The notes below the pieces were generated by a model, which saw only the letters and a program-made list of their open reading frames with translations, was not told the DNA's origin and ran no database searches. A DNA stretch of 50,474 nt from Myxococcales bacterium (GTDB lineage Bacteria; Myxococcota; UBA727; GCA-2721815). This document shows, piece after piece, positions 18,101 to 36,819 of the stretch (within the stretch, counting starts at the first letter, position 1; each line of letters opens with the position of its first letter). The stretch spans positions 1 through 50,474 of the forward strand of contig PBLQ01000013.1 of NCBI GenBank assembly GCA_002721815.1, given 5' to 3'. The position numbers were made by a program, and so were the translations under genes.

Positions 18101-21100
18101 AAGATACGGAGTTTTGTCCAGGGGGTAATGCCTCGACCGATCCCAAGAAACGGTTTTTGTCCATTGAGCTTGAGACCAATGATAACTTGGCGGGGAGCTT
18201 GACCGCGAGCGTGGGTTTGGGCAGCTCTTGCGGGGACAACTATTCCCCCTTGTCAGGAAATACGGTCACCGTTGAAGTGGGCTGTGAAGATGATGGCATC
18301 CACTGGGTGGGCATCTGTGTCAAAGACGCGGCCGGCAACAGGTACACTCATCCGTCAATCATGCTGATCCTAGACCGCCAGGCGCCAGAACAAGTGAGTA
18401 ACGTGACTGCGGTGGGCGGGAGCCGTCAGGCGATGATCGATTGGCAAGAAGCCGCAGATCTGGGGGATTCTGGAATACAGGGTTATGAAATTAGATATGC
18501 AAGTTTTGCAGAGCTCGACGGCGTGGGGACCGTCAGTGTTGGGGACATCACCTCTTACAGTCTCACGGGACTCCAAGATCGGGCCACATACTATTTTCAA
18601 GCAGCGGCAAGAGATGCTGCGGGCAACCTCGGCGAATTCTCGGCCATGAAGAGTTTTACCACCGGATTCGCACAAACCGTGCCGCGTTCTGATGTGACTG
18701 ACGCCATTATCGCTGATCCAGATCGCCGCTTTGCTCAGGCAACGGTCTTTGAGGCCATGGGCCAGTTGTACGTGTTTAGCTATCCCACTTACGAGGCAAA
18801 CCCCATTTTGAAAGTTAAAACCTGTGCCTACCGGACAGACAACTGTCGCGACCCTCAGCAGTGGACCGAGTTTGACCTGATTTTAGGTGACATTGATAGG
18901 GAAACCACTTGCGTCGCTGATGATGAATGTGGCGGTGGTCGGTGCCACGAGGGATTTTGCTACCAAAATGTTTGGTCGTTTGGTGCAGAAAATGTCCGTG
19001 CTTTGGCCACTTCCTATCGCATATATATCGCGGCAATGACCAATAAAGGGCCGGCGTTGTTCACCTGCGACAGAGGTTGTACGGCCGCGGCCACACAATC
19101 TGCCGATGGTTTAGGTTTTTCGCTCACATATTTGGAACGGAACAATGAAGATGGTTGCAGGATTGATCAAGGTGGCGCCAGCTGGCGTAGCATTGATATC
19201 GCTGAGACCACGGCCGGTATTCACGTGGCCTATAATGCGACTGAAGGAGACATTTGCGTCGCCAGTTGCGGGAAGGCGTATGAGGCCGTTCCAAACACGG
19301 GTATGGACGTTGGGCCGGGGTGCCAACTCAACCAAAACTGGTTTCACGTCAATGTGAGCGATGTTGATTCTAAGCCTGCATTTGACCTTGCTGACCGCGG
19401 ACCTTTAGACTTGGAGGCCTGGGATGACAGGATTGTGCTGGCCTACGAGTCAGAAAATGAGGGGATCGAAGTCATCTCTTGCTATACCGGGTCTGGGTGT
19501 ATCAATTCGGGGAATTCTACGGGCTGGGATCGGTTTGACGCCAATGCCACTTCAATGACTTTTGCGCCTCTCAATCCGGCCGGAATCGAGTACAATTCGC
19601 CTCGTATCATCTTAACCCAAGACTATATTTATACCCTTTGGCGTAAAATCGGGAGTTATTCCACCACCAAAATCAACCGGTGCGCTCGCGACGCTTGGAT
19701 TGCCGATAATGACGCATGTTATCCCGCCGACAATGAAGATGGAACTCAAGGTTCCTTCACCCAGTTGTGGGGACAGATCGAAGGCGGTGAAATGCTGAGC
19801 TTGTTCAAGGGCGCAGGTGCCTTACACCAGGTTTGGTGGAACAAATCGCAATCTCGCGTGAAATACGCGGTTTGCGAAAACCCCAACGCGACCGATTGCA
19901 GTGATGGGGATAATTGGGATCGTGTTGTTCTTGCCAATGAAGTGCCCAGTCGCACCATCCCTCACGTGGTCCAATATGGACAGAATGTGCTGGCATCTTG
20001 GATCGATGCCAACGCACACGTTCACCTGGCCTTGCCCATGGTCCCTGCACCCGATGGTTTTGTGGTCTGGCCCAGTGCGCAATCCTTACGTGCGAGTTGG
20101 AACCCCGTCAGTTACGTCGATGGTTATGACCTGTGGTACCAGAATGCCAGGGCTTATGGGGCGTCTTTAGACACCAACCTTTGGGAACAACGCATTCCGT
20201 TAAACGATGCTTTCGTGAATGAAGTGAGTATGTCTTTGGATACAGGCGCGTCTGACGAGCTTATGACCTACAACACGTGTATCCGTGCCTACGGTAATTC
20301 AGGCGAAGAATCTTCGGATGGTGATATGTATCAGGTGACCGCTTTCGTTGAGGAAACGCTTTCCAGTGACATCCCCGGGAATTTCTCTAGCAGAACCTGT
20401 GCCGCTGACAACACTTGCAGCAATTATGGGGCTGATGGTTGGGGGAGTAACGTGGGGTATGCGTACACCATCAACAATGATGGGGTGTATGTGGCGCTTC
20501 AGGGGCGCCCTGAAGTACGGTTGGCCCTCCCGAATGATGCCACTGCCGGTATTTTAGATGTGCTACTGACGCCCCAATCGTCAACCCGTTTGGGTGATTA
20601 TGATAACGGTTACTTTTTTGTGGTGACTGGCATCAACCATCGGAACGCGATACCCGAAACCATCGTCATGAATGTCTGCCAGTTTAATTTGGGGCAAGGC
20701 AGAGATTGTTCTTTTTCGGACGCATGGCATTCTTACGAGGTCGTCGATAACGATACCTCAAATTTGGGCAATGCTAATGATGGTAAAACCACCGCGCAGT
20801 TGGTTCATGATGGTGCCGATCGGGTATTCTTGGCCTACCGCATGAGTGACCGTGATCAAGCTACGGCCAACAAAGTGGCTTTTGTCTCCTGCTTTTTAAC
20901 GACCTACGCTAACGGTGAAACCACCGGTTGTACGGAGGAGAGTCAATGGCTCGATTATACCTTCGGGGGTCCCCATTGGAAGGGCATGAAAACCATCCCC
21001 GGGCGCTTCAGTATTGCCGCGGGCCAAACCCAAATCACCAATCAATCCGGTGCTGTGGAAGACAAGGGGGTCGTTTTTCTGAGTTACCACCGGCAAGACA

Positions 21101-21768: not shown

Positions 21769-21872
21769 TGCGAGCCTAAATAAGTCATTGGAAAAATAGA
21801 AATATACCGAGCATGCTTTACTGAAAAAGTGCTAATCTTTTGGCTCGTATTGATACTTTTCTTGGGGGGGGC

Positions 21873-24800
21873 ATGCGTCATCTTATCCTTCTTATTTTTT
21901 GTATTTCTGGGGTTTTAGGCGGTTGCCAACCCGTCACCAACGACACCCGCGCCGATGTGCGCGCTGCCATTTCTGGGCGTGTCGTCTTGGTGGACGAAAA
22001 CGGCTTAAACGATGTCAGTCGCGTCCGGGTTGAGCTGGGCAAAGGAGAGGGGGGGACCACCCCTGAAGAAGACGGCAGTTTTCAACTCTCGGACTTAGAA
22101 CCCGATGTCTATGAATTACGTGTCATCTATTCTGGCGGCTTAACGCCTGACGCCTCGGAGAGTGCGTACCAACAATTCAGTCGCCGTTTGCTGCTCCAAG
22201 AGGGGGGCAACCTGGATTTGGGTGATGTGGAGCTCCAGTTGGGTGTGGGGTCGGTGTCTGGTCAGCTGAGCGTCGAAGAAGGCCTCGATATCTCTTCTGC
22301 AACCGTGAACCTGTCGCGCATCACCTCATCGGACAAATCGCTGCGCCGCGTGGGCGACACCACCTACAGCCAAGCCCTCGAAGAAGATGGCAGCTTCACC
22401 TTAGAAAACGTTGCAGTGGGCTCTTATTATATGGTGGTTGAAGGCGATGGCATCTCTGCCACTTCAGGCTCTGCTTGCTTAGAGGTGGTGAGCGTTGACG
22501 AAGATTTACAAGTTAAAGAGGCCCCTTCTTTTTCATTGGCTTCCACCGCAGTGCGTTTTTCTGCCGGTACCGACCAAGTGATTGGCTTAGACACCTCAAG
22601 CCGTTGGTTGCTTTCGGGCGAGGGTGTCACCGTGCACATTCAAGCTTCTTTTGCCTTTGCCCAAAAAGTGTGGACGCAAGGCGAAGAGATGCCGGCTGAA
22701 TTTACAGATATTGACGAGGCAGACCGAGCAGACATCGTTCATATTTTTGAAAATATCGAAGAAGGTGAAAACGAAGTCTACTTTCAATTCGCAGACCCCT
22801 GTGGCTTTGAAAGCGAGGTGCTCACGCTGACTTTGGTGCGCGATATCTCACCTCCAGAGATTTTAAGTGCGCATTTGAACAACGAAGTGGCTTACAGCAC
22901 TGCAAGTACGGTGGCGCTCACGGTGGATGCCGTGGACGTGTTGTCAGACACCTTAGAAATGCAATGGGGCGTGTGTTTGTCGGGCGAGAGTGATTGTACG
23001 CCTTTAGACAGCGATGCCTCCAGCTGGACGCCTTATGTGCCTTATGTGAGCGTGCCTTTGGCCGAGGGCGATGGCACCTATCGGCTCGGTCTTCAACTCC
23101 GTGATGCATCACAGAACGCAACGGCCGTGGTGGAACGCAGCGTGACGTTGGATACGGTGGCGCCCACAGACTTAAGTTTGACCATCGGGGATGGGTCGGC
23201 CTTCATCACCGAGGCGAGTCAAATCTTGCGTCTGACGGGTGAGGGCATTTTTGAAATGCAGATCGGGACAGACTTGGCCGACGCCCCTTGGCAACCCTAT
23301 CAAGAGTACAGCAGCTACACCTTTTTGCCCTCTAGCGTCCCCGTGACATTGTATGCCAAAGCCCGTGATGAAGCGGGCAATATGACCGAATCCGTGGAAG
23401 CCAGCGTGACCTTAGATGCCACGGGGCCACAGGCACCCAGTGTGGTGCTCAACAATGGTGAACTGTTCTCCAATGGCCTAGCCGCTTTGGCTGATACAGA
23501 TGCTTCAGTACAAGGCGTCCGCATTGCCTTGAGCGTTGCCGGGGGCGAAGCCGGTGGGCAGGTCTTGATTGCAGGTGATGTTGAGGAAGCGGGCGCTTAC
23601 CCGTGGCCTGATCACCCCACTGAAGTGACTTTTGAGCGTGAAGAAGGAGAAAAAGAAATCAAAGTCGTACTGAGCGATGCGGCGGGCAACCACTCTGCCG
23701 TCACCAAGAGCACCGTCATGTTTGACTTTACCCGTCCAGTTTTAAACAATCTTCGTTTAAATGGTGATCGTGGTTACGCTCAAAGCGGCAATGTGAGTCT
23801 TGGATTGAACGCCACAGAGTTACATTTGAATCATCTCCAAATGAAGGTGGCCTTGTGTGTCTTGTCTGAAAACCCCCAAGACCACCTCAATCCCGCCGAG
23901 GAAATGACGTGCACGCCCTCACTTGAAGAACTGGAATGGGCTTCTTTTGCCGCTTTCCAAAATTTGAGCTTCCCTGAGGGAGACGGGGCGAAAGGCGTGC
24001 AAGTACGTTTGCGCGATGGTGCGGGCAATGAGAGTGAGGCCACGCTCATGAGGGCCTTTGTGCTGGACAGCACGCCACCCCAAAACGTGAGTCTGACCAT
24101 TGGTGATGGGTCGGCTTTTATCACCCAATTAACGCAAACAATCACATTGACTGGCGAAGGGATTGCAGAAATGAAGGTGGGCACTGACTCAGCCGGCGTC
24201 ACTTGGCAGCCTTACCAAGAAAATTTCATGTATACGTTTTCGCCTTCTGACGTGCCCGTGACGCTTTATGCCAGAGCCCATGATGAAGCGGGCAATACCA
24301 CAGATTTCGTGGAGGCCATGGTCACCTTTGATGCCACAGCTCCCCAAAACGCACAGGTGACGCTGAACGATGGCAGTCTTTTTTCAAACAATGATGCCTA
24401 CCAGGCGAATCTCAGCATTCTCGGCGGCGAAGAAGGCGGCCAGGTCATTCTGTCCGGTGACCTTGTTGAGGCGGGTGCCTACGATTGGCCCAATTACCCA
24501 TCCGAAGTGACCTTTGTGGCGGGCGAGGGCGACAGAGAAGTTCAAGTGGCCTTAAGCGACAGCGCTGCGAACTTTTCAGACTTTGTTTCGGCCATTGTCA
24601 TTTTTGACCTTACTGCGCCGGTGAACAATGTGGCATCTTTAAACCAAGACGATTTGTATTCTCAATCCGAGGTGGTCTCTTTGGTGCTGAATGTGACCGA
24701 GGCCCATGAAGATGGCTTACAAATGCGTGTGGCACAGTGCAGTCTTCCCAGTATGCCGCGAGACCACTTGAATCCTGCTGATCCAATGACCTGCGACCCT

Positions 24801-27800
24801 GTTTTAGAGGACATCCCGTGGGCACCTTACGCATCTTATCAAAATCTTATTTTTAATGAAGATGGGGCTAAGGGGGTACAAGTGCAAGTGCAGGACGGAG
24901 CGGGCAACCTTAGTGGTGCTGTGCAAAGGGCCTTTGTTCTCGATCGTCTGGCACCCCGCAGCATCAGTATCGCCATTGGTGATGGGAGCGCTTACGTGAC
25001 ACAACGGACGCAGGTGGTGTCCATTCAAGATGACAGACGTGAAGCCACGCACATGAAGATTGGCTTGGTGGAGGGGCTGCCTGGGGTGCCATGGCAAGCT
25101 TTTCAAGATCAAATTGAAGTCACATTTTCAGAAGAAGAAGGCGAGAAAACCGTCTACGCGCAGTTCCGCGATGCAGCAGGTAACGAGACACCTTCAACCA
25201 GTGCGTCCGTCACGTACACCACTTTGGGCACCATCACCGGCAAAGTGGTGGCAGAAGATTTACAAGATTTGAGTTTGGTGGAAGTGAGTGTGTTGGGCGG
25301 GAGTGGTTCGGTTTACCCTGAAGCCAACGGTACTTTTACCATCAGTGACATTCCTGAAGGCGTTTACACCGTCCAAGCCCAAGTCACGGGGCCCTGGGCC
25401 AGCAAATACAATGTGGCGCAATATGGCGTGGCGGTGGAGGCGTTACAGACCACCAGCATGCCAGACATGGTTTTAAACCTGGCGCGTGGCAACGTGAGTG
25501 GAGCCATTGATTTAGAAGCGCAAAACCACAATGGAGGCGTGGTGGTGCAACTCTTGCCGCTGTCAGTTGCTGACCAAGGCATGGCAGATGGTGGCGTCGC
25601 CAATGAAACTTGGGACGGTGGTGAGGCCGAAGACGATGGCTTCATTTATACCACCATCACCACCGATGAGGGTGCATTTGCCATCAACGGGGTCGTTGTG
25701 GGCCAATACCAGCTGAAGGCTTCAAAACCGAATTACGTGAGTCAAACCTTTGCGCCAATAGGGGTTTTGGCGAACGAAATGGCAGAAATCCCAACAATTT
25801 ATTTAGAAGTACAAAAAGGAGATGTCAGCGGTGTTGTTCAGGTAGAGGCCTTTGTCGGCAGCATGGACGATGGGAACGATTCAGACGGTGGCACCAACGA
25901 TTTGCGCACGAGGGTTTCTTTCTTGAATCTCAATTCACAGTTGACAGTTTCGCCCGGAGAAGCATTTACGTTTGACGGGGTGGCTTTGGGCCCCCAGACC
26001 ATGCGTTTTGAAGTGTTGCCCCCGTATGACGACTTGTATGCCCCAGTGGAGAAAGCTGTTGAAGTCACCGCAGGCCTCTCTTCGGTACCACAGGTTTATA
26101 TGCCTTTGTTGCGGGGAAGTCTCTCCGGCAGCGTTGCCAATGAAAACACCCTGCCAGTGATAGGGGCGTTGGTGTCGATTCAAGAGCTGGATCTCGTGAT
26201 GGTGTCGAATACCAACGGTGAGTTTGAGTTTCTGTCGGTTCCAGTGGGAGTTTACACCCTGAAAATCAACAGTGCGGGATATGGGGAAGAGACGCTGACG
26301 GCCCAAGTGCAGGCAAACACCAACACCGATCTCGGGCTGCAGACACTCGTTCGGGAGAAGGGGAATGTGCAGGGTTTGGTTAACATCGAAGGCGGTTTAT
26401 CTCCCAATAACGTTGCGGTATCTGTCGTCGGTGGCAGTCAAAGTGCGCAAGCGTCAGAGACAGAACCAAACAGCACCAACGGCAGTTTTCTTTTAGAAGG
26501 GGTCGACCCGGGACTGCAAACATTGCGTTTCGAGGTCACGGGTGGCGATGCCGTCAACTATTTGGCAAAAGAGCTCGATGTTGTGGTGCAGGCGGCTCAG
26601 ACCATAGAAGTCAATGGTGGTCAGCCTTTGACCGTTCTAAAGGCAAGAGGTTCTATTTCAGGGACCGTCCTGCTCGACAATCACAATGGTGATGTTGATG
26701 TCTTGGTGCAAATACCCTCTGAGTCGGAAGCCGTGTTGACCAATGCGGATGGTTCATTTGTTTTTTCTGATGTGCCGGTTGGGCAATACAATCTTACGTT
26801 TCAACGATCCGGTTACCAGGCAGCCACTGCGAACAACCAATTGGTGACCAACGGCGGCATCACCATTGTAGACACCCTCACTTTGCCAGAGTTGCTGGGC
26901 AGTATTTCGGGGCAGGTGGTCCTCGAGGAGGGTTCCGATTTTTCGGGCATTGAAGTCAGTTTGACGGGGACCAACCATTCTGTCACCACAGACATCGATG
27001 GCAACTTTAACTTGCCTGATATACGTCCTGGATTTTACAACGTGCTCATGCGCAATGACGGCTTTCAGGATTTACGTGAAAATGGTGTTTATGTTCAGGC
27101 GCTCGTTGATAACGATTTGGGCGGTTTTGTGCTCACGCGTGCGCGCGGCCTTCTTGAAGGCGTGGTTCGTTTGGAGGGGCTGGAAAACCATTTGGGCATC
27201 AAGGTCGAATTCCCAAATACGGGCTACACCACCTATTCTGCTGTGGACGGCAGCTTTGACCTTAATGTGCCGGTGGGCAACTATCCTGACTTAACCTTCT
27301 CGAAGACCCATTACGGTACGGTGGTTTTGGCGGATACCATTACGGTGACCGAGTACGGCACCTACGCGGTGGAGCCCGTTGATTTGGTGCAGGTGAGTAA
27401 ATCGGTCACAGGCTCGGCATTTTATCAGGGCATGGATGACCACCAAGGCATTTTGGTCCAAGCCTATGGCCTAAACGCGGGGGGGACTGAAACGTTGGTT
27501 GACGAAACCACCACCTCAACTGCAGGGACCTACGGTTTTGAATCTTTACCGCTTGGCCAATACCGTTTCCGATTCTCAAACCCGTTGGCCAATACCAGTT
27601 GGTCAAGGCCTTTCTTTCAGGTTGCCCTAGAGGTGGGTGCTGCCGAAGAAATGCCATCTGTTTTTCTGCAGAATATGTTTGTCTTCATTAACGATGATGA
27701 TTTGGCCACGAATAATCCAGTGGTGACATTAAATGTGGGGGCCATGGGTTGTGATACCATGCGTGTGGCGAATGAAGGCGATGACCTCAGCGCTGCGCCA

Positions 27801-30800
27801 TTGGTGACTTGTCCGCAAAGCCAACAACTTTCAGACTGGTCTTTGAACGACGTGAACCAAGGCGAAGAAGAAGAGCGTAAAGTCTTCGCGCAATTTTACG
27901 ATGCACAGGGGAATGAGCTGGGCCCTCCCGTTTTTGATTCGATTTTACTCGATAAGAAACTTGAAATCGATACCGATTTTGAATGGGGTGGGAGTTCTTG
28001 GCTACCAAACGAAACCGGGTATTTTACCATGATCGATTTTGCCGTTGGGGTGCCCATCGGGGAGACGGTGGATAAAGTTTGGGTGGATATGGGCGCATAT
28101 CAGCCGGAACTGCTGCTTTTGTATGACGGCGAAGCGCGTTTGAACCCTGCGAATGAAGCAGAGCCTGTTCTGCAAGTGTACCGACGAAGTTTTACAGTGT
28201 TGGACCGTACCGATGCCCATAATGTGGAGGTTCAATTTAAGGTACAAGATGCTGCTGGTAATATCGCCACCTCGGTGTTGGGGACCACCAGTTTTGTCTT
28301 CCCTCCCGAAATTTTACAGCAAACCATTGTGGCAGATACGGCTGCAGGAACGGCAACCTTGTTTTTGCAAACCGACGAGATCAGCTCGGGAACCGTCGCC
28401 TGGGGCAATACGCTGGATTACAATGAACCGTTGATTTCCCTTTCAGCAGATACGCAGCACGAAACGATTTTTACAGGGCTGGTACCTGGCGAGCCCTATT
28501 ACGTTAAAATCGATATTGAGGATTTATCGGGTAACGCCCTTGATTCCATTTACAAAATATTCTTTTTAAGGCCCGCTGCGCCCGTAAGGGTGGTGGCCAT
28601 GGCTGGGGATGGCCGTGTGGACGTGCGGTGGGAGATGCCGGGTCGTTATGTTGGCAATGGGTACGAACAGAATCGTGACCAGTTTGACGTGCCGGTGCAG
28701 TGGAACATCCGCGGGTATGAAATATATAAGGCCACAGATAACGGTGATAATGTTTGCGACGAAACGGATACATTTACTCCTGTCAGTCCGGCAGGGGGTT
28801 ACGACCATCCAACCTTGTTGTACCACGACCAAGATGAAAATGGTGTCCATCAAGTGAGCAACGGCATTTTGTACTGTTATCGGGTTGCTGCTTTAGATGA
28901 GAATGGCATCGAAGGTGATTTGAGTGACATTGTTGAGGCCCGGCCAACTCTTAACAACGGCGGCACATACGTGGGCTGCGATACTTACGTTGATGAGACT
29001 GGGGCGACGCAGAACTGTGATATTACATCGGGCGCTTTTTTGACAAATACCGTTTGGACTTCAGCAGGAAGCCCTTACCACGTCAAAGCATCCTTGGCCT
29101 TTCTTGAGAATGTGGCTTGGTTCGTCGGTCCAGGAACCGAAATTATTCTGAGTCCGGGCGTCGAATTGGATATCTATCATCAGTTTGGTTTTTATGGACA
29201 AACGTCTGATGTGTTGTTCGAGCTGGATGATGACGGCCACGCCCAGGTAGATCCGGAGGGAATGGTGCATTTGCACGGGGTCGAGGGTGAGGCCGATTGG
29301 AAATGGCTGAAGTTGCATGGTGGTGCACCGCTCGGTCGGGTCAATATCGGGGCGAACCCGCGTTTCTTTGCGGGCAACATGATCTTTAGGACTCGAGTTT
29401 CCAATGCAGATCGCGCCCTCTACCTCAACGGTGGCGATTTGGTTATGTTAAACAGTTGGTATCACGACAACAAAGCGTTCGATCCTGTCACTGGAAGTGC
29501 CTTGAAATGGGGGCAAGGCAACTTGATTGAAGACAGTGGCTTCGGCACTTATGAGTACGATTTGAATCGTTTTGAAAATCAAGTCCACCGTAACAGTGAG
29601 TTTTCCGCCGAACATGGTTTCACCCAAAACATGGTGATAATGTGCGACAGTTACTGCTCGCATCAAACTTTCATTGATGTTGCATCCATATACGATTCGC
29701 AGAGCGAGAGCGTGGTTCATTATGGTGGTGAAATCTATTTCTCCGTTTTGTCAGATATCACCCTTGGTACTTATGCGCATTGGCATAACAGCCACGGCTA
29801 CGGAAATAAATTTTCGAACCATGGTACTGTATACCATTCGCTCATGGATGGGGTGGTCTTTACCGGTACCCAATTTCATCCTGGATTGACGAACAGTTGG
29901 TTTGTTGAGCCGCCAACAGCATGGTCCATCTATCGGGGCATCAACAACAATAAATATGCCGCTTTTCATCACAACAGTTTTTTTGATAGCGGTATTGCGT
30001 CTTCCATTGATTCCATAACGGCTTACGGTTGGTACTCAAATACGCCCACCACCCATCTGGACGCTAATTTCTACGGGGCAACTCATACCCTAGAGTTGGA
30101 CGCTGCCGACGCTTCCACGGATGTGTCTTTTCTGAACGACGTCTTCGATGATGCCGAAAAACCGCGTTTCGTTTGGGATGATTATCTCAGCGAGCCGACA
30201 CCCGTGATCCAAATCCAGGGCCCGCTCATGCTGGCAGAGTTACAAACGCAAAAACCTTATGACCTCACGGCACGTGTGGCTCATGGGGCTGAATATATCG
30301 CAGAGGACGCCGTGTTTGAATGGGTTTGGGAGGCAAGTGATGATAGCGAAACGGTTTCAGTTGGGTCGGTATTCACGGTGACGCCTCCTTCGAGGTTTAT
30401 CAACACATGGGAGCATGTGATTTTGGAGGCGCATGTGCGTATCATGACCACTGGCGGGTTTTATGTTTACGCCAGCCACACCATCAAAGCGCTCGAGAAC
30501 AACCAGTATCACAGTGGTTATCAAGTGATTCCTGAAGGGATTGTATGGCCGGTAACGCAAGATTACACCTTTCCTCAAGGCGCCCATTGGTTGCACGGGC
30601 CATCGTTGGTATCGCCCCCGGACAAGCCTGCCATCGCAAAGATGGTGTGTGGTTACGCGGACTGCGTGATGACTTGCTTCTTAAATGAGGAACCGCAAAT
30701 TTGCGATCACGGTGTCTGGCACGCGCGTTTGGATGAGGGTGCGTATACTTTACGGGTGGAGGTTCATGACAGTGAGGGCCTTGAATTGCAGACGCCGTTG

Positions 30801-31241
30801 ACGCGCGCTTTTACCGTAACATCAAATTTAGCAGAAACCGCGACGGCAGATGCAAATCACAGTTGGGCCACTGCCTACGGACCTTCACGTGTGCTGGATG
30901 GAGATACAGATACGTTTTGGTGGTCGGATGATATGGCAGCGAGCAATGTCCCCTCGGCTCAATTGACGGTTACGCTTGCGGAGGAGCGCTCCATTAATCG
31001 GATAAGAATTGTGACGGGTGAAAGGTTTTTGCAATCGTTTGATCTGGAAGTTTCTACTGATAACCAGAATTATGAAATACTTGGCAGTTATTCTACGGAT
31101 GCTTATGGTGTCAAGATGATAGAATTTGAGCCGACCGATGCAAAGTATGTTCGTTTGAATCAAATTACGGCCCAACCCAATGAGTACAATCGGGAAATAT
31201 GTGGCATCTTAGAATTGGGTGTCTACGAAAACCAAGAGTGA
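21873..31241 (+). CDS. Giant (~3123 aa) cell-surface lipoprotein/adhesin, paralogous at its N-terminus to the upstream giant; Ig-like domains, tandem 303-aa units, ~9 CarbD-like domains, FN3, His-rich beta-helix-like region, C-terminal discoidin (F5/8 type C) domain
   Basis: Start ATG 21873 (MRHLILLIFCISGVLGGCQP, lipobox). Residues ~30-170 align with giant 1. Giant 2 reads RADVRAAISGRVVLVDENGLNDVSRVRVELGKGEGGTTPEEDGSFQLSDLEPDVYELRV. Giant 1 reads RADTRAAVSGRVVLADTPGVSDMSRVRVEIGKGEGGSTPEEDGMFQMTDLEPDVYEVRV. C-terminal ...FWWSDD...RIRIV...YVRLNQI... is discoidin-like. Confidence 0.9.
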   Translation: MRHLILLIFCISGVLGGCQPVTNDTRADVRAAISGRVVLVDENGLNDVSRVRVELGKGEGGTTPEEDGSFQLSDLEPDVYELRVIYSGGLTPDASESAYQQFSRRLLLQEGGNLDLGDVELQLGVGSVSGQLSVEEGLDISSATVNLSRITSSDKSLRRVGDTTYSQALEEDGSFTLENVAVGSYYMVVEGDGISATSGSACLEVVSVDEDLQVKEAPSFSLASTAVRFSAGTDQVIGLDTSSRWLLSGEGVTVHIQASFAFAQKVWTQGEEMPAEFTDIDEADRADIVHIFENIEEGENEVYFQFADPCGFESEVLTLTLVRDISPPEILSAHLNNEVAYSTASTVALTVDAVDVLSDTLEMQWGVCLSGESDCTPLDSDASSWTPYVPYVSVPLAEGDGTYRLGLQLRDASQNATAVVERSVTLDTVAPTDLSLTIGDGSAFITEASQILRLTGEGIFEMQIGTDLADAPWQPYQEYSSYTFLPSSVPVTLYAKARDEAGNMTESVEASVTLDATGPQAPSVVLNNGELFSNGLAALADTDASVQGVRIALSVAGGEAGGQVLIAGDVEEAGAYPWPDHPTEVTFEREEGEKEIKVVLSDAAGNHSAVTKSTVMFDFTRPVLNNLRLNGDRGYAQSGNVSLGLNATELHLNHLQMKVALCVLSENPQDHLNPAEEMTCTPSLEELEWASFAAFQNLSFPEGDGAKGVQVRLRDGAGNESEATLMRAFVLDSTPPQNVSLTIGDGSAFITQLTQTITLTGEGIAEMKVGTDSAGVTWQPYQENFMYTFSPSDVPVTLYARAHDEAGNTTDFVEAMVTFDATAPQNAQVTLNDGSLFSNNDAYQANLSILGGEEGGQVILSGDLVEAGAYDWPNYPSEVTFVAGEGDREVQVALSDSAANFSDFVSAIVIFDLTAPVNNVASLNQDDLYSQSEVVSLVLNVTEAHEDGLQMRVAQCSLPSMPRDHLNPADPMTCDPVLEDIPWAPYASYQNLIFNEDGAKGVQVQVQDGAGNLSGAVQRAFVLDRLAPRSISIAIGDGSAYVTQRTQVVSIQDDRREATHMKIGLVEGLPGVPWQAFQDQIEVTFSEEEGEKTVYAQFRDAAGNETPSTSASVTYTTLGTITGKVVAEDLQDLSLVEVSVLGGSGSVYPEANGTFTISDIPEGVYTVQAQVTGPWASKYNVAQYGVAVEALQTTSMPDMVLNLARGNVSGAIDLEAQNHNGGVVVQLLPLSVADQGMADGGVANETWDGGEAEDDGFIYTTITTDEGAFAINGVVVGQYQLKASKPNYVSQTFAPIGVLANEMAEIPTIYLEVQKGDVSGVVQVEAFVGSMDDGNDSDGGTNDLRTRVSFLNLNSQLTVSPGEAFTFDGVALGPQTMRFEVLPPYDDLYAPVEKAVEVTAGLSSVPQVYMPLLRGSLSGSVANENTLPVIGALVSIQELDLVMVSNTNGEFEFLSVPVGVYTLKINSAGYGEETLTAQVQANTNTDLGLQTLVREKGNVQGLVNIEGGLSPNNVAVSVVGGSQSAQASETEPNSTNGSFLLEGVDPGLQTLRFEVTGGDAVNYLAKELDVVVQAAQTIEVNGGQPLTVLKARGSISGTVLLDNHNGDVDVLVQIPSESEAVLTNADGSFVFSDVPVGQYNLTFQRSGYQAATANNQLVTNGGITIVDTLTLPELLGSISGQVVLEEGSDFSGIEVSLTGTNHSVTTDIDGNFNLPDIRPGFYNVLMRNDGFQDLRENGVYVQALVDNDLGGFVLTRARGLLEGVVRLEGLENHLGIKVEFPNTGYTTYSAVDGSFDLNVPVGNYPDLTFSKTHYGTVVLADTITVTEYGTYAVEPVDLVQVSKSVTGSAFYQGMDDHQGILVQAYGLNAGGTETLVDETTTSTAGTYGFESLPLGQYRFRFSNPLANTSWSRPFFQVALEVGAAEEMPSVFLQNMFVFINDDDLATNNPVVTLNVGAMGCDTMRVANEGDDLSAAPLVTCPQSQQLSDWSLNDVNQGEEEERKVFAQFYDAQGNELGPPVFDSILLDKKLEIDTDFEWGGSSWLPNETGYFTMIDFAVGVPIGETVDKVWVDMGAYQPELLLLYDGEARLNPANEAEPVLQVYRRSFTVLDRTDAHNVEVQFKVQDAAGNIATSVLGTTSFVFPPEILQQTIVADTAAGTATLFLQTDEISSGTVAWGNTLDYNEPLISLSADTQHETIFTGLVPGEPYYVKIDIEDLSGNALDSIYKIFFLRPAAPVRVVAMAGDGRVDVRWEMPGRYVGNGYEQNRDQFDVPVQWNIRGYEIYKATDNGDNVCDETDTFTPVSPAGGYDHPTLLYHDQDENGVHQVSNGILYCYRVAALDENGIEGDLSDIVEARPTLNNGGTYVGCDTYVDETGATQNCDITSGAFLTNTVWTSAGSPYHVKASLAFLENVAWFVGPGTEIILSPGVELDIYHQFGFYGQTSDVLFELDDDGHAQVDPEGMVHLHGVEGEADWKWLKLHGGAPLGRVNIGANPRFFAGNMIFRTRVSNADRALYLNGGDLVMLNSWYHDNKAFDPVTGSALKWGQGNLIEDSGFGTYEYDLNRFENQVHRNSEFSAEHGFTQNMVIMCDSYCSHQTFIDVASIYDSQSESVVHYGGEIYFSVLSDITLGTYAHWHNSHGYGNKFSNHGTVYHSLMDGVVFTGTQFHPGLTNSWFVEPPTAWSIYRGINNNKYAAFHHNSFFDSGIASSIDSITAYGWYSNTPTTHLDANFYGATHTLELDAADASTDVSFLNDVFDDAEKPRFVWDDYLSEPTPVIQIQGPLMLAELQTQKPYDLTARVAHGAEYIAEDAVFEWVWEASDDSETVSVGSVFTVTPPSRFINTWEHVILEAHVRIMTTGGFYVYASHTIKALENNQYHSGYQVIPEGIVWPVTQDYTFPQGAHWLHGPSLVSPPDKPAIAKMVCGYADCVMTCFLNEEPQICDHGVWHARLDEGAYTLRVEVHDSEGLELQTPLTRAFTVTSNLAETATADANHSWATAYGPSRVLDGDTDTFWWSDDMAASNVPSAQLTVTLAEERSINRIRIVTGERFLQSFDLEVSTDNQNYEILGSYSTDAYGVKMIEFEPTDAKYVRLNQITAQPNEYNREICGILELGVYENQE
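23152..25215 (+). repeat. Internal tandem repeat of a ~303-aa (~909-nt) two-domain unit, ~2.3 copies (units begin ~23152, ~24061, ~24936)
   Basis: Unit A reads VTLDTVAPTDLSLTIGDGSAFITEASQILRLTGEGIFEMQIGTDLADAPWQPYQE...VTLYAKARDEAGNMTESVEASVTLDATGPQAP. Unit B reads FVLDSTPPQNVSLTIGDGSAFITQLTQTITLTGEGIAEMKVGTDSAGVTWQPYQE...VTLYARAHDEAGNTTDFVEAMVTFDATAPQNA. A partial unit C reads FVLDRLAPRSISIAIGDGSAYVTQRTQ... Copies are diverged, roughly 55% aa identity. Confidence 0.75.
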
Positions 31242-31253
31242 TTGCGGGGCGAC

Positions 31254-32546
31254 TTAGAGGCAATTTTGAATGATAACCCCGTCCGTGTTGGTCGTGCATG
31301 TGCAGCTGGGATCTTCGTTGTTAAATACGCCAGTGCTGAAAGAGCAGATATCGCCTCGTGACTTGACCTGGTCACGCAACTGGCTGAACATGCATTGGGC
31401 TAAGGCGTAGTTTTCAAAAATCGCAAAGGCAGTATGAGAGTCGGCATCTACCCGCGACAGATTTCTTAAATCGTATCCCGTGAGTAAAGGGCAGCTGTTG
31501 ATGAGGAGGCTGTTGACTTGTTCGAGGACCGGGGCCGAAAAAGAGGTGATCACATCGCTGCGGTAGACAAAGAAAGCGCCGCCGACTTCACGAAGTTTGG
31601 GCACGGAAAAGGATGTGAGAATATCTGCATCTTCAATGCGAAAGGTGCCGTCCACTTTTTCAAGGTTCGGTAATTCGAAGTAGTCTAAACTGTTGTTGAA
31701 CATGAGGTATAAGTCGCCGGTGATGGCGGTGCAGTGCTGGATGTCTTCGATGCGAACATTGCGGGTGACAGGCATGCCGCCATCGTTAGACGTGAGACTC
31801 ATGCCCGCATCGGTCACGCCAAAAGCAGAGGTGGTGGGGCCGCTATCGGTGATGACAGGTGGTGTTGCTGCGCCCGCGTCGGTCACCGCTGGCGGGGGCT
31901 GGTGGCCCGCATCATTGGCCATGGCTGAGGATTGCCCGCCATCCACAGCCATGTGGTTGCTGCCCCCATCACGGTTGAGCGCTGCAGGTGTGCCGCTGTC
32001 GGGCATGTCTGGGCTCTCGATGTAATAGGTGCCCTCACAGATGACATCATCCACTGTTTCGGTGTGTTCGACCACATATTCCGTGTCGCAGGGCTCCTCA
32101 CTGGGATTTGAAGGGCCCGCGTCGGTTTCGTCGCCGGGTTCTGCCTCAAAAGTATCAGCGCGGTCATCGTATTTACAGGGCGGGACACCATCGTCCTCCA
32201 TGGGGGCGTCAGGGCCGATGGTGAGGCTGCACTGGGCCGTGAGCGTGCGGGAGGTATTCAGGACGTAAGGGCTCGCGTAGGTGGCCGTGAGAATGACCCG
32301 ACCGTTTTGATGGGCAGTGACCAAGCCTGCTCTGAGAAGCGTGTCGGGTGGCAGAACAGTGGTGTCTTGGTTGATGGAAGCGATGGCTGCATCCGAGCTG
32401 CTCCATGTGATGACTTCGGGTTTGACCAACCGTCCATTTTCGTAATGTCGAAAATAAAAGTCGGGGACCAATTGTCGGGTTTCACCCACGGCCATGTTGC
32501 CAGTGGTGTTCTCCATGGCCACCAGCTGAAGGTCGTATAAACCCAC
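31254..32546 (-). CDS. BIG2 (bacterial Ig-like group 2) domain + Asp/Thr/Gly-rich linker + receptor-L-domain/LRR-like C-terminal domain protein; probably the body of a frameshifted lipoprotein gene
   Basis: BIG2 signature VGETRQLVPDF...ITWSSSDAAIASIN. The C-terminus has L-domain-like repeats (CTAITGDLYLMFNNSLDYFELPNLEKVDGTFRIED...LREVGGAFFVYRSDVITSFSAPVLEQV). The ORF starts at GTG 32546 with no signal peptide. A lipoprotein signal lies immediately upstream in another frame. Confidence 0.7.
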   Translation of the reverse strand: MGLYDLQLVAMENTTGNMAVGETRQLVPDFYFRHYENGRLVKPEVITWSSSDAAIASINQDTTVLPPDTLLRAGLVTAHQNGRVILTATYASPYVLNTSRTLTAQCSLTIGPDAPMEDDGVPPCKYDDRADTFEAEPGDETDAGPSNPSEEPCDTEYVVEHTETVDDVICEGTYYIESPDMPDSGTPAALNRDGGSNHMAVDGGQSSAMANDAGHQPPPAVTDAGAATPPVITDSGPTTSAFGVTDAGMSLTSNDGGMPVTRNVRIEDIQHCTAITGDLYLMFNNSLDYFELPNLEKVDGTFRIEDADILTSFSVPKLREVGGAFFVYRSDVITSFSAPVLEQVNSLLINSCPLLTGYDLRNLSRVDADSHTAFAIFENYALAQCMFSQLRDQVKSRGDICSFSTGVFNNEDPSCTCTTNTDGVIIQNCL

Positions 32547-32905
32547 GTGGAATCGAGGGTGTCATCTAAAGTGCCAGCGTCGGTCGTCTGGTTGTCGTCG
32601 GTTGGGTTCGCTTGGCCGCCGTCTTCATGGATGGGAGGCGGTGTGGTCGTGATTGCACCTGCATCAAGGGTCGTGTCATTGTTGGGTGGGGGCTGAAAAA
32701 TGGTTTTATTTTTTGTGGTGCCGTCTGTTGGTGCATTGTTGTCTTCTGGACATCCAATGACCAGTGCTGAAATGCTGGTCGCAATGATGATTTTAAAAAT
32801 AAGGTGCTTGGTTGATTTCAATGGTTTTGCTTTCTTTTGGGGTTGTGCAGGTGCCTGTTGAACCAGCGAATGTGGCGTGAAAAATTGGCGATTAAAGGTC
32901 GTCAT
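32547..32905 (-). other. Out-of-frame N-terminal segment (lipoprotein signal LIFKIIIATSISALVIGC + T/P/D-rich linker with TDAG repeats) probably belonging to the BIG2 gene downstream; apparent frameshift near 32546-32565
   Basis: ORF 32258..32905 has ATG 32905 and an alternative TTG at 32821 (MKSTKHLIFKIII...IGC). Its linker TLDAGAITTTPPP...TDAGTLDDTLDS matches TDAG-type linker repeats inside the 430-aa ORF. The meaningful sequence ends where the BIG2 ORF begins. Confidence 0.35.
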
Positions 32906-33386
32906 CGCAATCGTTCGTGTTCTGTGGCCCTAAATCGACCGCGGCGCAGGTTGGGTAGGGTGGACAAAATTCGTTGGCACCAAAAATGAGGGCGGAAATG
33001 TCTTCGAGGTCACATAAGCCATTGGGAATGACACCCGACAGTTCGTTGCCGTGCACCCACAGGTACCGTAAGTTGCTGAGTTCGACATAGCTCTCAGGGA
33101 TGGGACCGGTAAAACCGTTTTGGTCAACTTTAAGCGTTTCGAGGTCGCTGAGGAGTGAGAGGTTGGCGGGGAGTTCACCGGAAAGATTGTTGTCGCTCAC
33201 CGAGAGCAAAGTGAGGTTGGAAAGTGCACTGAGTTCAGGGGGAAGCGCCCCCGATAAGGTATTGAAACCCAGTTGCAATTGGTTGAGTTGGGCCAGGGTG
33301 GCGATGCCCAAAGGGATTTCTCCCGCGAGACTGTTGTTTGACAAAACCAAATTAATGAGTTGGGTTGACCAGGCTGTCCGAACCAT
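32892..33386 (-). CDS. Plant-specific-type leucine-rich-repeat protein (LxxLxxLxLxxNxLSGxIP repeats) with a Cys-containing C-terminal cap; probably the body of a frameshifted lipoprotein gene
   Basis: Five 24-aa repeats, for example LINLVLSNNSLAGEIPLGIATLAQ, LNQLQLGFNTLSGALPPELSALSN, LTLLSVSDNNLSGELPANLSLLSD and LETLKVDQNGFTGPIPESYVELSN. The C-terminus is CPPYPTC...NDCDDDL. Confidence 0.7.
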   Translation of the reverse strand: MVRTAWSTQLINLVLSNNSLAGEIPLGIATLAQLNQLQLGFNTLSGALPPELSALSNLTLLSVSDNNLSGELPANLSLLSDLETLKVDQNGFTGPIPESYVELSNLRYLWVHGNELSGVIPNGLCDLEDISALIFGANEFCPPYPTCAAVDLGPQNTNDCDDDL

Positions 33387-33438
33387 CGCAGGCCATGAGC
33401 CCGGTGAATAAAAAGGGGATGAGCAACGTCTTTTTCAT
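33352..33438 (-). other. Out-of-frame lipoprotein signal peptide ORF (MKKTLLIPFLFTGLMAC|DGSDSLVNPTH*), probably the true N-terminus of the LRR protein, separated by a 1-nt frame difference
   Basis: ATG 33438 with an AAGGA-like RBS, followed by a classic lipobox LMAC. The ORF stops 34 nt inside the LRR ORF, whose first repeat (TQLINLVLSNN) begins exactly there. Confidence 0.35.
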
Positions 33439-33688
33439 GAGGGAGTCCTTTTTTTTGAGAGGTGATGATGGGCAGACACGCAGCTGTCCCGAAAGGTAAA
33501 CCGCCAAGCCAGGGTGTTTTGGGCCGACGGCTGCCATTTAGGAGACGAAGCCTGTTTAAGCCATTGAAAAGAATAGATTTCTGATTTAAGGGAACGAAGA
33601 CTTGGGGAATAAAAAAAATTGTTAAATCCACGCCACATGGGTGGGGTTCCCCATATATAAGGGTGTACAGCCAACGACGGGGCATAGA

Positions 33689-34342
33689 ATGCGAATGAAA
33701 CTAAAATTATTGATAATGGCTTTGACCGTGACCTTTTCTGCCGGCTTAATGGCAGCAGATGCCAACAAGCCTCACGAGCACCAAGGTTTGGTAAAGCCCA
33801 TTAAAGGCGCCCCGCCAGAACTCAAGCTGACCGCAGCCGATCAGGCCAAATTGGCCAAGGGGGAGCCGGTTCGTAAACGCATCACCATCGGTGACACCGG
33901 GGGGCGCGGTGTGGTTGTTCAAGACATCCAAGCCCCTAAAGATGTGGTGATGGGTCGTATTTTGGATTTCAACAATTATCCCAAAATGGTGGACAAGGTG
34001 AAACTCACCAAAAACTACGAGACCAAAGGCGGTCACGTGAAAACCCATTTCATCATCGGTAACTTTGCGTTTGAAATGGAATACTTCATTGACCACGTCG
34101 TCAAAAAAGATAAGGGCTACGTCACCTGGACACTGGATTACAGCCGCAACAGCGATTTGGTAGACTCGGTGGGTTTTTGGCACGCCAAAGTACATCCTAC
34201 AAAACCGGGCTGGACGCGCTTGGTGTACTCCGCAGAGATTCGACTTTCTTCTTGGGTGCCCGGTTTCGTAGAAAATTATTTTGCCGAAAAAGGCCTGGTG
34301 AACGCCACGGCTTGGGTGAAGAAAGAGTCGGAGAAACGCTGA
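33689..34342 (+). CDS. Secreted SRPBCC (START/Bet v1-like, polyketide-cyclase-like) family protein
   Basis: Signal peptide MRMKLKLLIMALTVTFSAGLMAA. The ~150-aa mature domain has an SRPBCC-like beta-grip pattern (VVVQDIQAPKDVVMGRILDFNNYPKMV...WTLDYSRNSDLVDSVGFWHAKVHP...). Start chosen at ATG 33689. Confidence 0.6.
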   Translation: MRMKLKLLIMALTVTFSAGLMAADANKPHEHQGLVKPIKGAPPELKLTAADQAKLAKGEPVRKRITIGDTGGRGVVVQDIQAPKDVVMGRILDFNNYPKMVDKVKLTKNYETKGGHVKTHFIIGNFAFEMEYFIDHVVKKDKGYVTWTLDYSRNSDLVDSVGFWHAKVHPTKPGWTRLVYSAEIRLSSWVPGFVENYFAEKGLVNATAWVKKESEKR

Positions 34343-34593
34343 CGCGAAAACACCGGGTTTCAAATGCAAAAGATTCCCACGTCATATCTGATCCAACTTG
34401 TGAGGCCGCTCACACCTGTGAGACCTGAAAAACAGAAGAGCACTCGCTTAAGTTCATGAAAAAAAAGGTTTTTAGGGCTCTTCCAGCACAAAGAGTGGTC
34501 GAGCCCCCTTGCTTAAATAGGAAGAATTGAAGAGCCTTTTGTGGTAGAAATCCAGAGTTGGTTTGTATCCGCGACACATGAGGGGACTTCACA

Positions 34594-36117
34594 TTGGTAT
34601 CCGTGGTTTTGGCTTTTATTATGGCGTTTTTGACCGCCTTAACGGTGACCCCACCCGTACGGGTTTTGGCCCGTCGCCTGGGCGCCACCGACGATCCAAA
34701 CAAAGCACGTAAGGTACACGATCGCGTTATCCCGAGAATGGGTGGCTTGGCCATCGCAGCAGCTTTCTTTTTCCCCTTGGTAATTTTGTGGGGCATTGAA
34801 ACGGAGGTGGCCAAGGCCTTTATTGCCGACCGCAAACAAATCGTTATCCTGGCCTTTGGTGGGTTAATGATTTTGGCGCTCGGGGTTTACGACGACCGGC
34901 GGGGCGCGAGAGCGAGTACCAAGTTGGCCATCCAGCTGCCGGTGGCGGTGCTTTTGGTCCTTTCGGGTTTCACCTTCGATGCCAATGTTTCATTTCTTGG
35001 CTTTGATTTTGGGTTGGGTGTGTTGGCACCAGCGGTCACCATTTTGTGGATTGTGGGCATCACAAACGCCATGAATCTTATCGACGGGCTTGACGGTCTG
35101 GCAGCGGGTATTTCATTGTTGGTGGTTCTTACGCTCTTTGTGCTCTCCCTCGTGAACCAGCATTACGTCGGGGCCATGTTAAATGCTTGCTTGGCGGGCG
35201 CATTGGTCGGATTCTTGGTGCATAACTTTCATCCGGCCACCATTTTCATGGGTGACACGGGCAGCCTTTTTATTGGTTACATGATTGCATCCATTGCGCT
35301 CCTCACCTCCAGCAAGGGCACCACCACTGTGGCATTCCTTGTCCCGGTGATTGCATTGTCTGTGCCTATCATGGACACCACGCTGGCCACTTTTCGTCGA
35401 TTGCTTCGCAACCGGTCTCCCTTTTCTGCCGACCAGGAGCACATGCATCACAAGCTGTTGCATTTGGGGTTTTCGCATCAACGGGTGGTGCTCATTATGT
35501 GGGCATTTGCATTGGCCACTTGTTTGACCGCCTTGGGTGTTGCTTTTGTGCGCGGAACCCAGGTGTGGTCGGTACTGGTGATTTATTCGGTGGTCGTCTT
35601 TGTGGTGGTCAAAAAAATGGGTTTCATTCGGGTCGATAACTGGCAGGGTGAATTCAAGGCCGGTCGCAACCTAAAACAAAAGCGAAAGAAACAAAGCAAA
35701 TCCATTGAGCAAATGCAAAACACTTTCAAGTTCATGGAACACCCTGACCAGTTGCCGGGGTTACTCCTGCCGCTTCACCAGTTACTGAACTACGCAGCCA
35801 TGCAGGTCCAATTGAGCGACTCTTTTTTGGTGACCCTGGGGAGCACGCAGGGGCGGTATGTTTGGCCAGGCTTGGATGACCCGTCCATATGGTCTCAAGG
35901 GCGCAGTGTGACTTACCCATTAGAGGGCCGGTATGGCCCCATTGGTGAAGTGACCTATGTGTTCCTCAGTGAGAAGGCCATCGACGTGGAAGAAGAGCAA
36001 CTCTTAGATCGCGTACATCAACTGATGATTGAGGGACTTGAGCGCATTCAACGGGCCAACTCAAATATTGGTCTTGCCGGCGAAGAAGCTAAAATCAGGG
36101 TTTTACCCTCTGCATAA
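34594..36117 (+). CDS. Polyprenyl-phosphate sugar-1-phosphate transferase of the MraY/WecA (GT4) family (WecA/WbpL-like) with a ~150-aa C-terminal cytoplasmic extension
   Basis: Conserved WecA blocks are present: DDPNKARKVHDRVIPRMGG, NAMNLIDGLDGLA, FMGDTGSLFIGY. ~10 TM helices. TTG start at 34594 follows a GAGGGGA RBS. Residues ~360-507 have no TM segments and no obvious homology. Confidence 0.8.
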   Translation: MVSVVLAFIMAFLTALTVTPPVRVLARRLGATDDPNKARKVHDRVIPRMGGLAIAAAFFFPLVILWGIETEVAKAFIADRKQIVILAFGGLMILALGVYDDRRGARASTKLAIQLPVAVLLVLSGFTFDANVSFLGFDFGLGVLAPAVTILWIVGITNAMNLIDGLDGLAAGISLLVVLTLFVLSLVNQHYVGAMLNACLAGALVGFLVHNFHPATIFMGDTGSLFIGYMIASIALLTSSKGTTTVAFLVPVIALSVPIMDTTLATFRRLLRNRSPFSADQEHMHHKLLHLGFSHQRVVLIMWAFALATCLTALGVAFVRGTQVWSVLVIYSVVVFVVVKKMGFIRVDNWQGEFKAGRNLKQKRKKQSKSIEQMQNTFKFMEHPDQLPGLLLPLHQLLNYAAMQVQLSDSFLVTLGSTQGRYVWPGLDDPSIWSQGRSVTYPLEGRYGPIGEVTYVFLSEKAIDVEEEQLLDRVHQLMIEGLERIQRANSNIGLAGEEAKIRVLPSA

Positions 36118-36135
36118 TTTGAACGCACCATTGGG

Positions 36136-36819
36136 TTAGGGCGTGGTGGCTTCCTGTCGTGCTTTGTCGATGGCAGCCTGGACCTTTTCGGGTTCTAACC
36201 CACTAATGCTCGCCACTTGGTTGCCCTTCGCATCAAACACGAAAACATGGGGCAATTTTGACATGTATTGACCGTATTTTTTGGCCAATGGAGTTTCCCA
36301 GGTCACGATGTTGAGCTTGCGTACTGCTACATCACTTTGGGTTTGTAAGATTTTGTTGAGATGCTTATCGAGTATCCGGCATGGTCCGCACCAGGGCGCA
36401 TAAAAATCGACGACCGTTATTTTGCCTACTGCCAAATGCTCCTTCACCTCAATGGCTTGACCCTCTAATGCAAGCCAGGAGACATCGAGCCCTTCATCGT
36501 AACGTTCAGGAGGCAAATAGTTACCTTGGCCAGCGCCCAGTACAATCTTGTACCCCGCGGTGCTGGCTTGCTTTTGAAGCGTTTCTGGTGTGGTTTTTTC
36601 CGGATTGTAGTCCACCGAGAGTTCCGCGTTCGCATAGTCAAACTTGGCCTCTTTCACGTGTGGGTTTTTTTGGAGCGCCTTAACCGCTTTGCCGCCACAA
36701 CTTGCACAGCTTAATTTCTGCATGGACAAAACCACGTTAGCGGTCTCTCCGTGTGCGCATCCTTGGAGTAAAAACCAACAGAGGACAACAGACAGCGTAT
36801 AAAGCTTTTGTAATTGCAT
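36136..36819 (-). CDS. Lipoprotein fusing an N-terminal heavy-metal-associated (HMA, CxxC) domain to a C-terminal thioredoxin domain (WCGPC)
   Basis: Lipobox LLQGCAHG. HMA motif MQKLSCASCGGKAVKAL. Thioredoxin active site FYAPWCGPCRILD. Strong AAGGAAAC RBS. Confidence 0.8.
   Translation of the reverse strand: MQLQKLYTLSVVLCWFLLQGCAHGETANVVLSMQKLSCASCGGKAVKALQKNPHVKEAKFDYANAELSVDYNPEKTTPETLQKQASTAGYKIVLGAGQGNYLPPERYDEGLDVSWLALEGQAIEVKEHLAVGKITVVDFYAPWCGPCRILDKHLNKILQTQSDVAVRKLNIVTWETPLAKKYGQYMSKLPHVFVFDAKGNQVASISGLEPEKVQAAIDKARQEATTP

Follow-up and report, generated by a model that had tools for sequence, protein, structure and literature searches.

How the plant-type leucine-rich repeat (LRR) gene on the minus strand of this Myxococcales DNA came to lack a signal peptide, with a short lipoprotein-like reading frame directly upstream of it in another frame and a second split surface-protein gene next to it, is the question raised by this locus. 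The candidate causes range from one miscalled base to the loss of kilobases. Throughout, the window refers to the whole analysed stretch of 50,474 nucleotides.

Open reading frames at the locus

The earlier note described a lipobox-bearing open reading frame (ORF) that starts at ATG 33438 and ends after 28 codons, and an LRR ORF that opens in a different frame 52 nt downstream; both are present. The 28-codon ORF (33438-33352) encodes MKKTLLIPFLFTGLMACDGSDSLVNPTH and ends at the TAA at 33354-33352, and it overlaps the 164-codon plant-type LRR ORF (33386-32892), whose ATG is 52 nt downstream of ATG 33438 in the +1 frame, both ORFs being on the minus strand. In a three-frame view, a TGA at 33437-33435 closes the LRR frame, which is open from 33434, and removal of one base anywhere in 33434-33355 formally fuses the two ORFs. 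The 28-codon peptide has a predicted lipoprotein signal (MKK-TLLIPFLFTG-LMAC, with the lipobox cysteine at Cys17; by pattern match only), after which just 11 residues precede the TAA, with no in-frame mature domain. An AAGG motif lies 10 nt upstream of ATG 33438. No Shine-Dalgarno (SD) sequence precedes ATG 33386, and because SD use in this genome is patchy, with about half of the good genes here also lacking one, its absence is uninformative and internal initiation is possible.

The neighbouring gene is split as well, with a 215-codon ORF (32905-32258; lipobox SALVIGC and a low-complexity linker) followed by a 430-codon ORF (32546-31254) in the -1 frame. Two giant ORFs, at 9013-21768 and 21840-31241 on the plus strand, are adjacent and uninterrupted at 4251 and 3133 codons (12.7 kb and 9.4 kb); the second codes for many CarboxypepD_reg-like repeats and a C-terminal F5/8 type C domain (Pfam matches recorded for identical contigs).

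Recurrence of the junctions

The window junctions recur unchanged in 11 contigs, which align without a gap across as much as 20,684 bp and come from at least eight assemblies, representing several ocean samples: ERZ908613 (ERR599160), ERZ842040, ERZ2782931, ERZ2782943, JGI 3300020430, GCA_002471515.1, ERZ11848495 and SRR5321427. These are Illumina-type assemblies, made with different assemblers from different samples, and the exact 164-aa product and its neighbourhood recur in contigs of all eight. Identity to the window is 99.85-100% over up to 20,684 bp, and in the 2.5 kb spanning both breaks the recovered contigs are 99.92-100% identical to it and gap-free. Since these gap-free contigs differ in their SNP haplotypes, they are independent reconstructions of slightly different strains. 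The identical junctions in 11 contigs with different SNPs exclude a systematic indel error, so that of the two causes offered in the earlier note, real decay and systematic error, only decay stands, and the gene breakage is real. Both scars occur in every recovered assembly of this oceanic population and appear fixed in it; the sequence and its reproducibility are matters of direct observation.

In the 3133-codon gene, 12 substitutions that distinguish the window from contigs L001 and L002 are clustered in 53 nt (24846-24898), in a comparison where the difference elsewhere in 20 kb is about 0.1%; the cluster resembles a recombination or repeat-conversion patch.

Intact relatives and locus variability

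The first protein search with the LRR remnant gave a best match of 41% identity and missed the true orthologue, which was reached through the neighbouring gene. The 430-aa ORF falls in only two clusters of a 5.8-billion-protein collection, its own (a "Myxococcales bacterium" MAG, CMH56_05410) and that of P0022, a 67% identical protein of 679 aa. P0022 is encoded on contig L092 (GCA_902624725.1), which has three tandem lipoprotein genes, here called g1, g2 and g3. The L092 g1 gene runs off the contig at its 5' end and reads FLFTSFVACDGSDSLLSYEPE... followed by DxDxDG EF-hand loops; contig L095, 96% identical to L092, contains a complete g1 (273 aa, MKKTLFIPFLFTSFVACDGSDSLLSYEPEAG...), g2, and the start of g3. 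Intact g2 (L092/L095) encodes a 344-aa LRR lipoprotein that starts with a signal of its own (MIPKYKKTLFLTMAAISLLLLSAC) and continues through a Pro/Thr/Asp-rich linker, an N-terminal cap region and six repeats to an FCPPYPTC cap, and intact g3 (L092) encodes a 679-aa lipoprotein. Alignment to orthologues, which the earlier note had proposed, reveals three longer intact genes in L092/L095 and a kilobase-scale loss in the window.

The 35-kb scaffold L093 is collinear with the window (AKR, TauD, Omp85, VTT, GH31, Trx-HMA and SRPBCC genes; 81% nucleotide identity over 5.8 kb) and has a full-length g1 beside the SRPBCC gene, where the window has a 23-codon stub; g1 is also adjacent to SRPBCC in L096 and L098. 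Between g1 and the giant gene there are g2 and g3 in L092/L095, a 1109-aa lipoprotein gene in L093, and another lipoprotein gene in L097, while in L098, a contig of 0.86x coverage with many frame breaks, g1 directly adjoins the 3' end of the giant gene, without g2 or g3. These differences would fit a dispensable, fast-turnover island extending from g1 to the giant gene. The ancestral state of g2 and g3 is represented by a single outgroup only (L092 and L095, 96% alike); scans of metagenome contigs with P0022, and with a P0022/P0021 alignment, gave no matches.

Some further features of the region are recorded here. In L098, both g1 (1476-2430) and the 3' end of the giant gene (2606-3432) look frame-broken, possibly through errors at 0.86x coverage. 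A GT4 gene (34594-36117; WecA/MraY-like, 507 aa) lies between the Trx-HMA and SRPBCC genes of the window and is absent at the matching position of L093 (L093 8376-9729 against window 33641-36819); a scan of genome contigs with the GT4 protein yielded only relatives of at most 48% identity and no useful synteny. The g2-g3 cassette of the window shares 74% amino acid identity with that of L092, and the last 516 nt of g3 have 81.6% nucleotide identity, whereas the C-terminus of the giant gene (L092 3994-6453 against window ~28700-31241) shares about 37% amino acid identity over 775 codons; the contrast points to very fast evolution of the giant protein or to an exchange of the cassette between lineages.

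With the orthologues as reference, the window locus is partitioned as follows.

33439-33479, minus strand: intact 5' UTR and ribosome-binding region (AAAGGA) of g1, aligning with the region upstream of g1 in L097, L095, L098 and L093.
33370-33438, minus strand: first 23 codons of g1 (MKKTLLIPFLFTGLMAC DGSDSL), comprising the predicted signal peptide, lipobox Cys17 and six mature residues, matching the N-termini of P0023-P0027.
33352-33369, minus strand: junction of putative deletion 1, from the three-frame view, local alignments to L092 and L095, and a multiple alignment.
32892-33365, minus strand: 3' remnant of g2, with repeats 2-6, the C-terminal cap NEFCPPYPTC...QNTNDC and the stop codon, by the L092/L095 orthologue and Pfam LRR matches.
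32562-32905, minus strand: 5' part of g3, with signal peptide, lipobox ..SALVIGC and low-complexity linker, matching residues 3-90 of the 679-aa P0022.
32558-32561, minus strand: junction of putative deletion 2, with ~0.53 kb missing and the downstream part in the -1 frame, from P0022 and L092 alignments.
31254-32557, minus strand: 3' remnant of g3, with an Ig-like region, linker and receptor-L-like domain but no signal peptide, open for 434 codons and matching P0022 residues 264-679.

The g1 stub and the first junction

Residues 1-23 of the 28-codon ORF match the N-termini of g1 orthologues P0023-P0028 (e.g. MKKTLFIPFLFTSFVACDGSDSLLSYEPE), which are 55-96% identical to the L092 g1; P0023-P0027 are full-length EF-hand lipoproteins of 271-289 aa. 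The lipobox is at the matching place in the orthologues (FVAC, FIGC, FTAC, LIAC, IIAC). The match is beyond chance: in five other lineages there are full-length orthologous genes to whose 5' ends the ORF, together with its 5' UTR, can be aligned. The DNA alignment to L097 extends from 33479, in the 5' UTR, to 33370, ending exactly after GACAGCCTG (Asp-Ser-Leu), and in a six-way alignment the window departs from all g1 orthologues at the column after 33370. Ser20 is encoded by TCG in the window but by AGC or AGT in L095, L096 and L098; as the serine is kept via different codons, it was the g1 frame that selection acted on. Judged by these alignments, the lipobox peptide, which the earlier note had taken for the LRR protein's own signal, is the start of the EF-hand lipoprotein gene g1, and the g2 orthologue has a different signal. 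Directly upstream of the AAGGA motif of the g1 stub there is an A8 run (33456-33449, minus strand), which has six A's in L097 and is interrupted in L095, L096 and L098.

The g2 remnant is 74% identical in amino acid sequence to residues ~187-342 of the 344-aa L092/L095 orthologue. Firm DNA homology spans 33353-32900, with 33353 corresponding to L092 position 1490 and g2 residue ~191, and homology at the protein level begins at about 33365 (TQLINL vs SKLVNL) and continues to the stop codon. The 16 bases at 33369-33354 are assignable to neither g1 nor g2, and the right-hand breakpoint is placed within 33369-33353. Relative to L095, ~1.43 kb is missing, consisting of g1 codons 24-273, a 117-nt spacer, and ~187 codons of g2 that include its own signal peptide, linker, N-terminal cap and repeat 1 (the last two at orthologue residues ~140-186). 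There remain 23 homologous codons of g1, against 273 aa in the orthologue, and ~157 of g2, against 344 aa. The junction has a net +1 offset, and the g1 frame meets the TAA at 33354-33352. Breakpoints were read from local alignments; a MAFFT global alignment of the window with L095 misplaced the deletion. A tandem duplication at the junction was also considered and is unsupported.

Without the 13 nt CCAACTCATTAAT (33363-33351), the sequence would read in frame as ...DSLVN/LVLSNN, identical to g2 KLVNLVLSNN, and an earlier in-frame g1-g2 fusion that was later disrupted is conceivable in place of a single out-of-frame deletion; ~1% of random window 9-mers match the TTGGTAAAT segment equally well, and the likeness may be due to chance.

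The second junction

The 5' part of g3 aligns with P0022 residues 3-90, and window positions 32581-32562 correspond to L092 2175-2194 (DAGT.D.). Directly after the TGA, the downstream g3 frame reads HPRFHVGL, against KPRFHVGL in P0022 (residues 262-270), with seven of the eight residues identical and the shared codons differing only at synonymous third positions. The loss from g3 is ~0.53 kb (residues ~91-262) with a -1 offset, and the 3' remnant has 73% amino acid identity to P0022 residues 264-679. What is left of g3 amounts to 115 and 434 codons in two frames, compared with 679 aa in the orthologue; the Pfam Recep_L_domain match is weak in the remnant and 2.5e-6 in P0022.

Judged by these breakpoints, the two breaks are separate deletion events and neither is a 1-nt indel, with opposite frame corrections needed. 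The earlier note was right that two neighbouring genes are both broken, but the first break is a kilobase-scale deletion, not a 1-nt indel at the junction between signal peptide and mature domain, and the second is a ~0.53-kb internal deletion.

The alignment to P0022 starts at residue 29 of the 215-codon ORF, and TTG 32821 (minus strand), taken as the start, would yield MKSTKHLIFKIIIATSISALVIGC, which looks more like a typical lipoprotein signal than does the product of ATG 32905; the ATG 32905 start overlaps the LRR stop by 14 nt.

Proposed history

We propose that the ancestor carried g1, g2 and g3 as tandem lipoprotein genes, flanked on one side by the SRPBCC-like gene and on the other by the 3' end of the gene for the giant surface protein, and coding for an EF-hand calcium-binding protein of ~273 aa, a plant-type LRR protein of ~344 aa and a protein of ~680 aa, respectively. 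Deletion 1 (~1.43 kb) would have removed g1 from codon 24, the g1-g2 spacer and about the first 187 codons of g2, joining the g1 promoter, ribosome-binding site and signal peptide to LRR repeats 2-6 with a +1 offset, and translation from the g1 start would halt after 28 codons. Deletion 2 (~0.53 kb) would have removed g3 residues ~91-262 with a -1 offset. We put the probability of this history, with a three-gene ancestor, two out-of-frame deletions, and leftover ORFs that are most likely recently formed pseudogene remnants, at roughly 85%. The orthology and the breakpoints are plain from the alignments; deletion as opposed to insertion we infer, and the window state would be the derived one because a 23-codon stub at an out-of-frame junction could not have been the original state, and at least five lineages carry g1 at full length.

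Loss of function and recency are likewise inferred, from the remnants. On their structure, g1, g2 and g3 are most likely all inactivated; the remnants have no export signals, yet contain Cys-rich modules suited to an extracytoplasmic location. Relative to L092, where dS is saturated, dN/dS is 0.06 in the g2 remnant and 0.09 in that of g3; these values mostly reflect selection before the deletions and cannot separate a pseudogene from a functional remnant. Both remnants are stop-free, which in a neutral-substitution simulation has a probability of 0.09 at 5% divergence and 0.02 at 8%, so that the deletions would be recent relative to the divergence from the L092 lineage, except if selection still acts on the remnants; a persisting function would likewise agree with the low dN/dS and the unbroken remnant ORFs. 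The population SNPs within the remnants number two, both nonsynonymous (33092, Ser to Arg; 32252, Ser to Ala), against about 17 synonymous to 10 nonsynonymous in the flanking genes, a contrast that points weakly to relaxed constraint and is far from significant.

Alternative explanations

Two adjacent frame breaks within 1 kb are suspicious at first sight, but a true genome with an intact lipoprotein-LRR gene and one base miscalled in sequencing or assembly is extremely unlikely given the gap-free recurrence of the junctions on distinct SNP haplotypes in 11 contigs from at least eight assemblies. The 12.7-kb and 9.4-kb ORFs are unbroken, the look for similar frame breaks elsewhere that the earlier note proposed gave no further split genes among the gene calls on other contigs of the same population, and a one-base correction would leave ~187 g2 codons and ~250 g1 codons missing. 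A genuine single-nucleotide mutation parting an LRR lipoprotein from its own signal peptide is very unlikely. Taking out one base in 33434-33355 does fuse the ORFs, as the earlier note foresaw, and two distant homologues, P0002 and P0003, combine a lipobox, LRRs and this C-cap, but the orthologous signal peptide is the one in the EF-hand lipoprotein, the true orthologue of g2 has a different signal and 160 more residues ahead of where window homology starts, a full g1 is at the matching position in L093, L096 and L098, and the actual break is the scar of a ~1.43-kb deletion. Equally concerned with frame, a phase-variable contingency locus switched on and off by slippage of simple repeats might be entertained for surface lipoprotein genes in a variable locus, with the A8 run lying upstream of the g1 start; it is scarcely credible, since both junctions are free of homopolymers and short tandem repeats, the A8 run is noncoding and shows no length variation among the 11 contigs, and slippage cannot restore missing kilobases.

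A functional or nascent chimera, in which the LRR fragment is exported via +1 frameshifting or the remnants function from internal starts, is unlikely, even with the g1 5' UTR and ribosome-binding site retained, the remnant ORFs intact and their dN/dS low. Its frame might once have been continuous: removal of the 13 nt at 33363-33351 restores it, and the chimera may have been in frame before a 13-nt change there. Against it, neither a CUU-UGA motif of the prfB kind nor any other recognisable +1 site is present in 33372-33352, the CAT codon in the P site ahead of the TAA is unable to re-pair in the +1 frame, the two breaks require opposite shifts (+1 and -1), and the intact orthologues are unshifted. 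The fragment has no N-terminal cap, its four-Cys cap would be cytoplasmic if made from ATG 33386, and the nonsynonymous nature of both remnant SNPs, weak and not significant as that is, leans the same way. The narrower version, that the junction is a nascent chimeric gene with the promoter, ribosome-binding site and signal of the EF-hand gene upstream of a five-repeat LRR module, is distinctly unlikely; if such a chimera were expressed, or once had been, whether by reinitiation, by reversion or by an occasional +1 shift, it would capture, in nature, domains being shuffled among tandem genes for surface lipoproteins.

Two out-of-frame deletions in a three-gene ancestor remain our preferred reading, and they carry a caution for annotation. 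Where a domain follows a lipobox peptide out of frame, the arrangement resembles a 1-nt frameshift or sequencing error, but the scar here brings together parts of two distinct genes, and a "repaired" frame would code for a fictitious protein. The stretch from g1 to the giant surface-protein gene varies and decays as a lipoprotein locus, in marine Myxococcales whose population is nearly clonal and spread across the globe. Small lipoproteins with plant-type LRRs are also documented here in bacteria; no question of long standing hinges on the locus.

The LRR class and comparison with known systems

The LRR ORF encodes five 24-residue repeats, the first being LINLVLSNNSLAGEIPLGIATLAQ, and a Cys-rich C-terminal cap (Pfam LRR_1, 1e-13; LRR_8, 3e-9). 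Plant-specific (PS) LRRs have the consensus LxxLxLxxNxL(t/s)GxIPxxLGxLxx (PMC2946307). Repeats such as LNQLQLGFNTLSGALPPELSALSN and LTLLSVSDNNLSGELPANLSLLSD fit this consensus, and the best PDB sequence matches of intact g2 are plant LRR-RK ectodomains (GSO1 6s6q, MIK2 8web and FLS2 4mn8); by sequence the window repeats thus belong to the PS class, as the earlier note had recognised. The window remnant is not a complete solenoid, the C-cap being present and the N-cap and repeat 1 deleted. The C-cap, N-x-F-C-P-P-Y-P-x-C...Q-N/D-T-x-x-C, is common to the metagenomic proteins P0002-P0005 and P0009 and is not found in the plant matches. PS-type LRRs in bacteria have reportedly been described earlier by Miyashita, Matsushima and co-workers; our literature search on bacterial PS-LRRs returned the class definition only, and to our knowledge the marine bacterial PS-LRR family with the FCPPYPxC cap is undescribed as a family.

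The likeness to plant PS-LRRs (the receptor kinases GSO1, MIK2 and FLS2, and PGIP) lies in the 24-residue repeats and the same consensus, whereas the bacterial protein differs from the plant LRR receptor kinases in being a small lipoprotein with six repeats and neither kinase nor transmembrane segment. The g1 orthologues, with a lipobox and repeated DxDxDG loops (Pfam EF-hand_1/6/7, 3e-9 to 5e-7), resemble bacterial EF-hand lipoproteins; in contrast, the window keeps only the first 23 codons of g1 and no EF-hand. The arrangement of a short upstream ORF ending at a stop with a downstream ORF in the +1 frame is reminiscent of prfB-type +1 frameshifting, but there is no slippery CUU-UGA-type site, and the orthologues are unshifted and much longer. 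The closest parallel is with deletion-formed bacterial pseudogenes, which share the intact orthologues elsewhere, the truncated and out-of-frame remnants, the missing export signal and the fixed scars. Deletion-generated remnants in an accessory surface-protein locus are a well-known kind of phenomenon; this one differs from usual deletion remnants in that the promoter and lipoprotein signal of a different gene now immediately precede the remnant, with the frame off by one base, a chance juxtaposition that mimics a simple frameshift.
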